Shown here piece after piece: positions 1,900 to 3,256 of a DNA stretch of 11,568 nt. The notes under the pieces were generated by a model, which ran no database searches, had not been told where the DNA came from, and saw only the letters and a list, made by a program, of their open reading frames with translations. A program made the position numbers and the translations under genes. The first letter of the stretch is position 1, and every line of letters starts with the position of its first letter. The stretch lies in the IMG/VR virus record IMGVR_UViG_3300014913_001117, one strand, 5' to 3'. The DNA is from a virus.

Positions 1900-2672
1900 T
1901 GCTGTAGTGCTTCCTGGAAGGCCCAGAGGGTGGGGCCTCCCCCGTAGATGGGGAAGACGACCTTGTCGAAGATGCCGCTGAACTCCCTGTTCAGGTAAGC
2001 TGCGAACATCGTCGCCACGTCCCGAGGTCTGTTGCCGAAGATCCCACATCCCCAGGCACCCAGGATGAGGACCTCCGTCTGGTAGTGAGCGGCTACCTCC
2101 AGGATGCGTCGGCCCCGTCTCATCATGGTCGCGTGAGCGTAGGTGGGCTCGTCCATCGTGAGGGCTCCCACGTTCACGGCGGGGCAGGTGATGAATGCTC
2201 CCTTGTAGGGCTTCTCCAGGACGCGTCCGTTGTCGTCCCGGAAGACCCAGACCTCGGGCGAGTAGATGATGCCATCCGTGTAGAGCCCTGAGCGCTCGTA
2301 ACGGTTCGCAGCGTAGTAGGGAGAGTCCTTCAGACCTCCGATGAGTGTCGAGGACCTGGCGATGCTCTCTTCCTGAGCGACCGCCCCTCGAAGGAAACCG
2401 CCCCCTGGGTTCTTGGCCGAGGCGAAGTTCAGAGCAGTGACCCTCGCGTTGGGATTCTGGTCTCGCAAGGCGGCCAGGGTAGACTGGGTCGTGACCTGGA
2501 TCACGGACTCCGCCCACATCTGAGGGAGGGGGTTGAGCTGGTCTTCCGGAGGATGGTAGGTCGAGCCCTTCTCAGCAGGAAGCTGGACGGCTCTCCCCGA
2601 GGGGGCTCGGTACTGTCGGGACACGGTGATTTGGACGGCCTCTTTGGCCATCTTGATGAGACGTTGGCTCAC
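1896..2672 (-). CDS. bacterial-type poly(ADP-ribose) glycohydrolase-like macrodomain protein (DUF2263/TIGR02452-like)
   Basis: Contains LNFASAKNPGGGFLRGAVAQEESIARSS, which matches the PARG signature GGG-X6-8-QEE. Also has a Gly-rich diphosphate-binding loop, LILGAWGCGIFGN. GTG start at 2672 is preceded by AAGGAG with a 5-nt spacer and overlaps the upstream stop as GTGA. Confidence 0.75.
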   Translation of the reverse strand: MSQRLIKMAKEAVQITVSRQYRAPSGRAVQLPAEKGSTYHPPEDQLNPLPQMWAESVIQVTTQSTLAALRDQNPNARVTALNFASAKNPGGGFLRGAVAQEESIARSSTLIGGLKDSPYYAANRYERSGLYTDGIIYSPEVWVFRDDNGRVLEKPYKGAFITCPAVNVGALTMDEPTYAHATMMRRGRRILEVAAHYQTEVLILGAWGCGIFGNRPRDVATMFAAYLNREFSGIFDKVVFPIYGGGPTLWAFQEALQQ

Positions 2673-3256
2673 AGCAGCTCCTTGAGCTTGGCGGGGTCGT
2701 GCCCGTGCAGTTCCTTGACCCGTGCGATCCAGGCTCGGGTCTTCACCTTGAACATGTGACCTTTACGGGTCTTGCAGACGACACCCTCGACCAAGAGGGT
2801 GGACTCGCGGATGCTCTCGATGAAGACCTCGTCAGCCGGCCCGCTGTAGATGAGCTGGGGAACCATGAGGTCTTTGAAGAGCTTGGCGAACTCCTTGGGC
2901 GGAAGCAGCTCACGATTGTCGGGGGCCACGTCGAAGAGCGTGAGGTCCAGCTCGTCCCCTGGCTTGTGACTGCCGGCGAACGAGTAGAGGCCCCCTAGCT
3001 CGAAGAAGCAGACGACCCGCTGCCAGCGCTTGGCCTTGAAGATGGCTGCGAGGGGCTCGGCGAAGTCGCGGTCGAGGCAGGCTTGTGCCTGGCCCAGGAG
3101 GTTCTGCGAGTCGATGAGCTGCCGGCGGCTGCCGAGCTTGTAGAAGCCCTTCTTGGCGGACCACTCGGCCCTGATCTGAGAGCCGTCGACCTTGACGAAG
3201 GCCCAGACGTGTTCGCCTTCTGCGACCTTCGAGGTGATGGAGGGGTAGGACTTCAT
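2669..3256 (-). CDS. minimal ATP-dependent RNA-ligase-like nucleotidyltransferase (Rnl2-like NTase domain, no OB or C-terminal domain)
   Basis: Covalent nucleotidyltransferase motifs are present. Motif I is FVKVDGSQ (compare KxHGTN/KxDGS). Motif III is CFFELGG. Motif IV is EGVVCK (compare T4 Rnl2 EGYVLK). Motif V is MFKVK. At 195 aa it is too small for a DNA ligase. ATGA overlap with the upstream gene. Confidence 0.6.
   Translation of the reverse strand: MKSYPSITSKVAEGEHVWAFVKVDGSQIRAEWSAKKGFYKLGSRRQLIDSQNLLGQAQACLDRDFAEPLAAIFKAKRWQRVVCFFELGGLYSFAGSHKPGDELDLTLFDVAPDNRELLPPKEFAKLFKDLMVPQLIYSGPADEVFIESIRESTLLVEGVVCKTRKGHMFKVKTRAWIARVKELHGHDPAKLKELL

Follow-up and report, generated by a model that had tools for sequence, protein, structure and literature searches.

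The 11,568-nucleotide viral DNA IMGVR_UViG_3300014913_001117 from IMG/VR, referred to over its whole length as the window, encodes a 195-amino-acid (aa) nucleotidyltransferase of the RNA-ligase type that consists of the adenylyltransferase domain alone. This protein (hereafter the ligase) probably serves a huge (jumbo) bacteriophage as an ATP-dependent RNA ligase that is complete in a single domain and, judged from sequence comparison and fold prediction, its most likely function is self-sufficient ATP-dependent repair of RNA, tRNA in particular. It belongs to a large family of proteins of about 200 aa that are carried mainly by huge phages and, in most lineages, the gene sits within phage tRNA gene arrays, in the same orientation as the tRNAs. 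The gene lies at:

2669..3256, minus strand: 195-aa single-domain RNA-ligase-type nucleotidyltransferase gene (22.1 kDa, isoelectric point (pI) 9.1)

The open reading frame (ORF), for which the first-pass annotation of this DNA gave no strand, has exactly 195 codons with an ATG start and a TGA stop on the minus strand. With a window of 63% GC, its GC content at third codon positions (GC3) of 0.88 is in line with a genuine gene of this genome. The protein matches the Pfam family PF09414 (RNA_ligase) over profile positions 2-171 of 171 with E = 6.5e-8 and 33.3 bits, above the gathering cut-off of 27, so that the ligase similarity claimed by the first-pass annotation is significant. It also matches PHROG 548 'RNA ligase' (E = 2.7e-5) and, weakly (25.5 bits), the C-terminal adenylyltransferase half of the NCBIfam model of the DraRnl type, TIGR02306. 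An AlphaFold2 model with a predicted local distance difference test (pLDDT) score of 93.8 shows one compact domain with the nucleotidyltransferase fold. The motif I lysine, K22, comes after a lead of just 21 residues and the chain stops 23 residues beyond motif V, which together with the single-domain model bears out two earlier statements, namely that the N-terminal extension is almost absent and that there is no oligonucleotide-binding (OB) or C-terminal domain. A PDB search with the single ligase sequence returned one chance match to Bcl-2 (E = 0.85), and PADLOC gave no defence-system match for the ligase or its neighbours.

Residue conservation was counted in an alignment of 252 family members. 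The four motifs named in the first-pass annotation were all found in the order given, between residues 22 and 172, and two further motifs and a conserved N-terminal peptide could be added to them:

3236..3256, minus strand: N-terminal peptide MKSYPSI, residues 1-7, nearly invariant (Y4 99%, I7 94%, P5 92%)
3179..3193, minus strand: motif I, KVDGS, residues 22-26 (K22, D24 and G25 in 252/252; K22 is the predicted AMP-accepting lysine)
3122..3133, minus strand: motif Ia-like GSRR, G42, S43, R44 and R45 (G42 98%; position 44 R or K in 99.6%)
2990..3007, minus strand: motif III, FFELGG, residues 84-89 (E86 100%)
2927..2938, minus strand: motif IIIa, LFDV, residues 107-110 (D109 99.2%)
2771..2788, minus strand: motif IV, EGVVCK, residues 157-162 (E157 99.2%, K162 97%)
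2741..2752, minus strand: motif V, FKVK, residues 169-172 (K170 99.2%, K172 98.8%)

All catalytic motifs (I, Ia-like, III, IIIa, IV and V) are thus intact and under strong purifying selection. Of the features of the covalent nucleotidyltransferase superfamily, three are present: a conserved lysine in a KxDG motif I, the usual sequence of motifs III, IIIa, IV and V around the nucleotide pocket, at least 97% kept, and the nucleotidyltransferase fold. Family match, fold and conservation agree on a ligase-superfamily nucleotidyltransferase with K22 as the motif I lysine, and the invariance of this residue in all 252 homologues answers the concern, raised with the original prediction, that it might vary among orthologs. 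A degenerate or truncated pseudogene was also considered and is ruled out, because both length and catalytic residues are kept across hundreds of clusters.

Alignment with the T4 Rnl2 sequence using hhalign paired E157, K162, K170 and K172 with E204, K209, K225 and K227, respectively, and covered the motif IV-V segment only; the residue mapping of motifs I-IIIa therefore rests on motif spacing and the fold match. Motif I aligns with that of the Rnl3 enzyme PAB1020 (KVDGYNVR). From its spacing, 20-22 residues past the motif I lysine, the GSRR motif would correspond to T4 Rnl2 R55 and to S185-K186 of DraRnl (PMC1807946). The N-terminal MKSYPSI resembles the N-terminus of T4 Rnl2, MFKKYSSL (Rnl2 sequence verified as identical to PDB 1s68). 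After motif III follows a family-specific S92-x-x-G95-x-H97 (G95 100%, S92 and H97 99.2%). R29, S92, G95, H97, W176 and the MKSYPSI peptide, all invariant specifically within this family, may stand in for an accessory domain in handling the substrate or pyrophosphate. The ligase is basic, and the median pI of the family is 8.5.

A search of 5.8 billion proteins recovered 103 homologues of the ligase, all of about 195-220 aa, and a hidden Markov model (HMM) search of 1.84 billion cluster representatives identified 944 family members at E <= 1e-3, 410 of them at E <= 1e-30. Nearly all of the best 150 of these 944 representatives are 195-220 aa long and match end to end, and 242 of 251 collected family sequences are no longer than 230 aa. 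The protein had been singled out as unusually small, which holds against characterised ligases but not within its own large family, where this size is the norm. Domain fusions were explored as a clue to function and rejected, the longer members being few and having no additional Pfam domain; several of these look like mis-called genes with upstream start codons. PF09414 was matched by 28 of 40 family members tested (E <= 0.01) and TIGR02306 by three of the 40, none of them near its cut-off.

Huge phages were the only source of matches when 50,697 phage records were searched with tblastn. The matches comprised Xanthomonas phage XacN1 (385 kb), in which the homologue is ORF354 and annotated as 'hypothetical protein', fifteen Lak megaphage records (540-551 kb) and four uncultured huge phages with LR7452xx/LR7565xx accessions (485-642 kb). 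IMG/VR contains 153 ligase loci, many of which are on contigs of 300-620 kb (maximum 618 kb), and the closest relatives on long contigs (loci L002 and L004) have the look of jumbo phages, with dense small ORFs that lack Pfam hits. A minority of family members are found in bacterial and archaeal genome assemblies, including the isolates Lusitaniella coriacea, Hyella patelloides and Pelagibius sp. and several Pirellulaceae metagenome-assembled genomes; the cyanobacterial copies are named 'RNA ligase family protein' in RefSeq.

Predicting tRNAs with ARAGORN in ligase-centred loci revealed a frequent association with tRNA genes. The distance from the ligase gene to a tRNA is at most 6 kb in 57 of 79 IMG/VR loci (72%), at most 1 kb in 22 and at most 300 nt in 10, and 354 of 355 tRNAs are co-oriented with the ligase (loci L007-L085 and L122-L127). 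By a rough and unmeasured estimate, in a genome of 400 kb with tRNA clusters extending over a few tens of kb, a gene picked at random would have a chance of about 10% of lying within 6 kb of a tRNA. Arrays of 8-21 tRNAs in about 12.6 kb were observed at 15 of the 60 loci of one scan and, at the extreme, a tRNA-Lys begins 11 nt past the end of the ligase match (L010) and a tRNA-Ala ends 10 nt ahead of the ligase start (L012). When the ligases are clustered at 60% identity, 28 of the 45 clusters show the association, which extends to complete genomes, five of seven huge-phage genomes in GenBank, both Lak lineages included, having 10-22 tRNAs in the 40 kb around the ligase.

One phage clade (23-26 loci; e.g. 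L027 2959-3363, L030 3659-4336) has four same-strand gene types directly upstream of the ligase, encoding a protein of 134 aa that has two H-x-T motifs and matches 2H 'Swiss Army Knife' phosphoesterases below the threshold (21 bits vs 27), a histidine phosphatase (PF00300, E = 1e-42), an HNH endonuclease and a GroES-like Cpn10. The 2H-like protein and the histidine phosphatase could, from their family matches, serve as RNA end-healing enzymes. No 2H phosphoesterase, histidine phosphatase, Pnkp or Hen1 is present in the window; XacN1 encodes both Pnkp and Hen1, elsewhere in its genome than the ligase (PMC5852040).

Two peculiarities of the predicted tRNAs were apparent. A tRNA with anticodon CTA, called 'tRNA-Pyl' by ARAGORN, is found at L046 12398-12474, L055 5542-5615 and L062 11164-11239, and further CTA-anticodon tRNAs at L072 7366-7441 and L073 7534-7605, tRNAs of this kind being amber suppressors that hint at recoding of the TAG stop codon in those huge phages; L072 also has a transfer-messenger RNA (tmRNA) gene at 4-363. 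Many Lys, Asn, Thr, Val, Gly, Cys and Arg tRNAs were predicted at 82-100 nt vs the expected ~72-77 nt, including L010 6620-6705 and 9370-9460, L029 4083-4171, L054 5268-5358 and L070 4844-4943, some of them with four-base or two-base 'anticodons'. These overlong predictions could reflect insertions, introns or mispredictions, and would be relevant if the ligase acts in tRNA maturation.

The first-pass annotation had further proposed that a partner of the ligase could be encoded by adjacent genes. Two genes of the window overlap the ligase gene:

3253..3951, minus strand: upstream gene for a beta-sandwich protein, 232 aa from M26 of a 257-aa ORF, its stop overlapping the ligase ATG (ATGA)
1896..2672, minus strand: downstream gene for a 258-aa microbial-type PARG / TIGR02452 macrodomain protein, its GTG start overlapping the ligase TGA (GTGA)

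The PARG-like protein is well supported (PF10021 E = 2e-36; TIGR02452 208.9 bits vs a cut-off of 50) and its gene has an AAGGAG ribosome-binding site 8 nt upstream of the GTG, inside the last codons of the ligase. From this arrangement the ligase is predicted to be translationally coupled to the beta-sandwich protein upstream and the PARG-like protein downstream, and these links are specific to its closest relatives. The beta-sandwich gene adjoins the ligase gene in relatives whose ligases are 95%, 72% and 56% identical; at the locus with a 58%-identical ligase its position is occupied by a 71-aa gene and, in a related 349-kb genome, the homologue of the beta-sandwich gene is located away from the ligase, beside methyltransferase and uracil-DNA glycosylase genes. 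The PARG-like gene is kept beside the ligase only in the 95%-identical relative and is absent from this position in the 72%, 58% and 56% relatives and at all other loci searched.

To extend the comparison to the family, window proteins were searched with BLASTP and phmmer against the ORFs of 83 viral ligase loci, and all neighbours were clustered against each other. No neighbour is common to the whole family among these 83 loci, the largest neighbour cluster of real genes comprising 26 of them and representing synteny within one phage clade. Likewise, no conserved neighbour was found at 23 loci from bacterial and archaeal genome assemblies, and the bacterial chromosomal neighbours are unrelated housekeeping genes (glutathione S-transferase, ABC transporter, LysR regulator, aldehyde dehydrogenase). 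The earlier proposal of a partner encoded next door is accordingly not supported, no neighbour being conserved across viral, bacterial and archaeal loci; even the upstream gene, the only neighbour conserved in the window's clade, has a different location in a related genome. On the pRNA-sealing role that had likewise been suggested, the analysis turned up nothing relevant. Because neighbour clustering shows nothing universal, we conclude from gene order that members of the ligase family are probably stand-alone enzymes and that an obligate adjacent partner is unsupported.

A self-contained RNA ligase would follow the classical three-step pathway, in which K22 would attack ATP to form ligase-(lysyl-N)-AMP, the AMP would be handed to the 5'-phosphate end of an RNA, and a 3'-OH would then attack the adenylylated end, which closes the break. 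Broken tRNAs or other RNAs, for example those cut by host anticodon nucleases, may be the natural substrates of the ligase, and their repair could keep translation running during infection. Binding of the substrate would fall to the basic catalytic domain itself, including the MKSYPSI peptide and the short C-terminal helices. Such a role would accord with the gene content of jumbo phages, which commonly carry tRNAs and one or more RNA ligases as counter-defence, XacN1 having three Rnl2-family paralogues (PMC7824862). The ligase is likely an addition to the translation-maintenance toolkit of huge phages. A bolder version of this proposal is tentative, although possible: the family may be the smallest natural polynucleotide ligase, a single domain of ~195 aa that performs all three ligation steps in the absence of a clamp or OB module, and may have arisen in huge phages as an enzyme dedicated to looking after their own tRNA arrays, being transcribed together with the tRNAs that it repairs or matures.

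Several observations weigh against a self-sufficient tRNA-repair ligase. There is no nearby tRNA in the window's own clade (0/6 loci), in XacN1, in LR756511 or beside the bacterial chromosomal copies, and the window itself contains no tRNAs and no Rfam matches. The figure of 57 of 79 loci has no genome-wide baseline behind it, control loci around the unrelated upstream-gene family numbering six only, and the tRNA counts include related phages that are not independent observations. DraRnl deprived of its accessory domain keeps 4% of ligase adenylylation and 8% of nick sealing relative to wild type (PMC1807946), so an accessory-free ligase may be poor at steps 1 and 2 unless compensating features exist. 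Literature searches found no biochemistry for any member of the family, and a preference for ATP over other nucleoside triphosphates, or for RNA over DNA, is not readable from the ligase sequence.

The same DraRnl experiments are the main reason for keeping a second explanation, that the ligase is half an enzyme which needs a separate partner for adenylylation or AMP transfer, either the beta-sandwich protein or another phage or host protein, or which seals only pre-adenylylated ends. The isolated nucleotidyltransferase domain of DraRnl nevertheless seals pre-adenylylated nicks at twice the wild-type rate (PMC1807946), which is a precedent for the self-contained ligase. We consider a half enzyme unlikely. 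It is improbable that the ligase is instead a nucleotidyltransferase that joins no strands and, for example, adenylylates or caps RNA 5'-phosphates (to mark or protect tRNA ends) or AMPylates a protein. The proteins that the ligase resembles most, by a clear margin, are true strand-joining RNA ligases; motifs IV and V, on which ligases rely throughout the three steps, are completely preserved; and literature searches found no precedent for such an activity.

For the window's clade, the downstream gene raises the prospect of ADP-ribose-linked RNA repair, in which the PARG-like macrodomain would de-ADP-ribosylate RNA ends, or dispose of ADP-ribose-phosphate by-products, before resealing of the RNA by the ligase. 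The GTGA overlap and the ribosome-binding site within the 3' end of the ligase gene argue for co-translation, and the pair is kept in the 95%-identical relative. This pairing does not extend to the more distant loci, no KptA/Tpt1 or ADP-ribosyltransferase was detected in the window (Pfam, NCBIfam, PADLOC), and adjacency is weak evidence in a densely packed phage genome; we regard a joint pathway as very improbable. A DNA nick-sealing ligase for the phage genome is the remotest of the explanations, given that RNA ligases outscore DNA ligases in both fold searches, that the Pfam and PHROG matches are to RNA-ligase families, that the OB domain retained by all DNA ligases among the structural matches is lacking, and that the gene sits in tRNA arrays and not in replication modules.

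The window as a whole, an 11.5-kb metagenomic contig, is almost certainly part of a huge phage, as judged from a further gene:

5991..8819, minus strand: 942-aa MVP-like protein with Major Vault Protein (MVP) shoulder and repeat domains (PF11978 E = 6e-23; PF17795)

Homologues of this protein in the phage collection occur only in LR756500, LR756501 and LR756503 (462-735 kb), with 37-38% identity over ~90% of the length, and the window is therefore interpreted as a huge-phage fragment. The eukaryotic vault consists of MVP, PARP4, TEP1 and vault RNA, and the presence of MVP-like, PARG-like and RNA ligase genes within 7 kb recalls this particle; the MVP-like gene accompanies the ligase in no other locus examined. 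A 2023 preprint (10.1101/2023.11.10.566534) has already reported phage MVPs. An 868-aa open frame on the strand opposite the MVP-like gene (6024..8630, plus strand) is of low complexity, rich in Leu, Gly, Asp and Val, and from its composition looks like a by-product of high GC and not a gene. ORFs at 4060..4830, 5396..5935 and 10672..11301 on the minus strand and at 239..823, 8716..9234 and 9231..9806 on the plus strand have no significant match in Pfam, NCBIfam, PHROGs or PADLOC, and are typical of huge-phage 'dark matter'.

To our knowledge, in each biochemically defined clade of ATP-dependent RNA ligases (Rnl1-5) the catalytic domain comes with an accessory module on which adenylylation, AMP transfer or the choice of substrate depends. 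Nature here offers a large and strongly conserved family that lacks any such module, and with it a way to test the capabilities of an isolated catalytic domain and the means by which its substrate is specified. The systematic placement of the gene in huge-phage tRNA arrays points to tRNA as that substrate. If the ligase is autonomous, it would be a compact ~22-kDa enzyme that might find practical use, and would extend the huge-phage translation-maintenance toolkit; if it is not, a partner supplied in trans is implied. Literature searches revealed no characterised minimal or stand-alone RNA ligase of this type and, within their limited coverage, no paper on an accessory-free ligase clade or its tRNA-array context. 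Our surprise at the family is moderate, because automated annotation already says 'RNA ligase family protein' and a different minimal family, C12orf29, is known from earlier characterisation. A survey has grouped jumbo-phage ligases of this general type under 'Rnl2 family' (PMC7824862).

The label Rnl2-type, also used in the first-pass annotation, is too specific, as the best fold match is to Rnl5, the best profile matches are to Rnl3, and the accessory domains that define the clades are absent. The closest structure to the ligase model is that of the Rnl5 enzyme NgrRnl, at a sequence identity of only 19%, and the best PDB sequence-profile matches are Rnl3 enzymes with E of about 0.02, limited to motif I and motifs III-IV. 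By sequence, the ligase is roughly equidistant from the Rnl clades: its motif I, K-[VL]-D-G-S-N-I-R, is nearest to Rnl3, its fold to Rnl5, and its N-terminal peptide is like that of T4 Rnl2. It falls outside Rnl1, Rnl2, Rnl3 and Rnl5 as these are defined by accessory domains and equivalog models.

Compared with Rnl5 (Naegleria gruberi NgrRnl, PDB 5cot; Deinococcus radiodurans DraRnl), the phage ligase lacks the clade-defining N-terminal domain of ~126 aa, a putative OB fold, and its TIGR02306 score of 25.5 is far from the cut-off of 151.15; DraRnl requires this domain for adenylylation and nick sealing (PMC1807946). Compared with Rnl2 (T4 Rnl2, PDB 1s68 and 2hvq; trypanosome REL1, 1xdn), it lacks the C-terminal helical domain, its motif IIIa-IV stretch is ~36 residues shorter, its N-terminal lead is 13 residues shorter, and its motif I is KxDG rather than KxHG. 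Rnl3 enzymes are homodimers with N-terminal, dimerisation and C-terminal domains, none of which the phage ligase has, its 195 aa contrasting with the 373-402 aa of this clade (Pyrococcus abyssi PAB1020, 2vug; Palaeococcus pacificus RNA ligase, 8uce; MthRnl). T4 Rnl1 carries a C-terminal tRNA-specificity domain and works with Pnkp in tRNA anticodon-loop repair against the PrrC nuclease. The phage ligase has no C-terminal domain and matches the Rnl1 model TIGR02308 with E = 0.081 and 12 bits vs a cut-off of 242, and Pfam and NCBIfam scans found no polynucleotide kinase-phosphatase in the window.

The C12orf29 family, represented by the human protein and a homologue in Yasminevirus, consists of compact, lysine-adenylylating RNA ligases that, like the phage ligase, are free of classical accessory domains. 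The Yasminevirus homologue (PDB 9c6l, 242 aa), from a giant virus with many translation genes, is a 'minimal' RNA ligase shown in vitro to join tRNA anticodon-loop halves (PMC11071452) and is thus a functional precedent for the role proposed here for the phage ligase.

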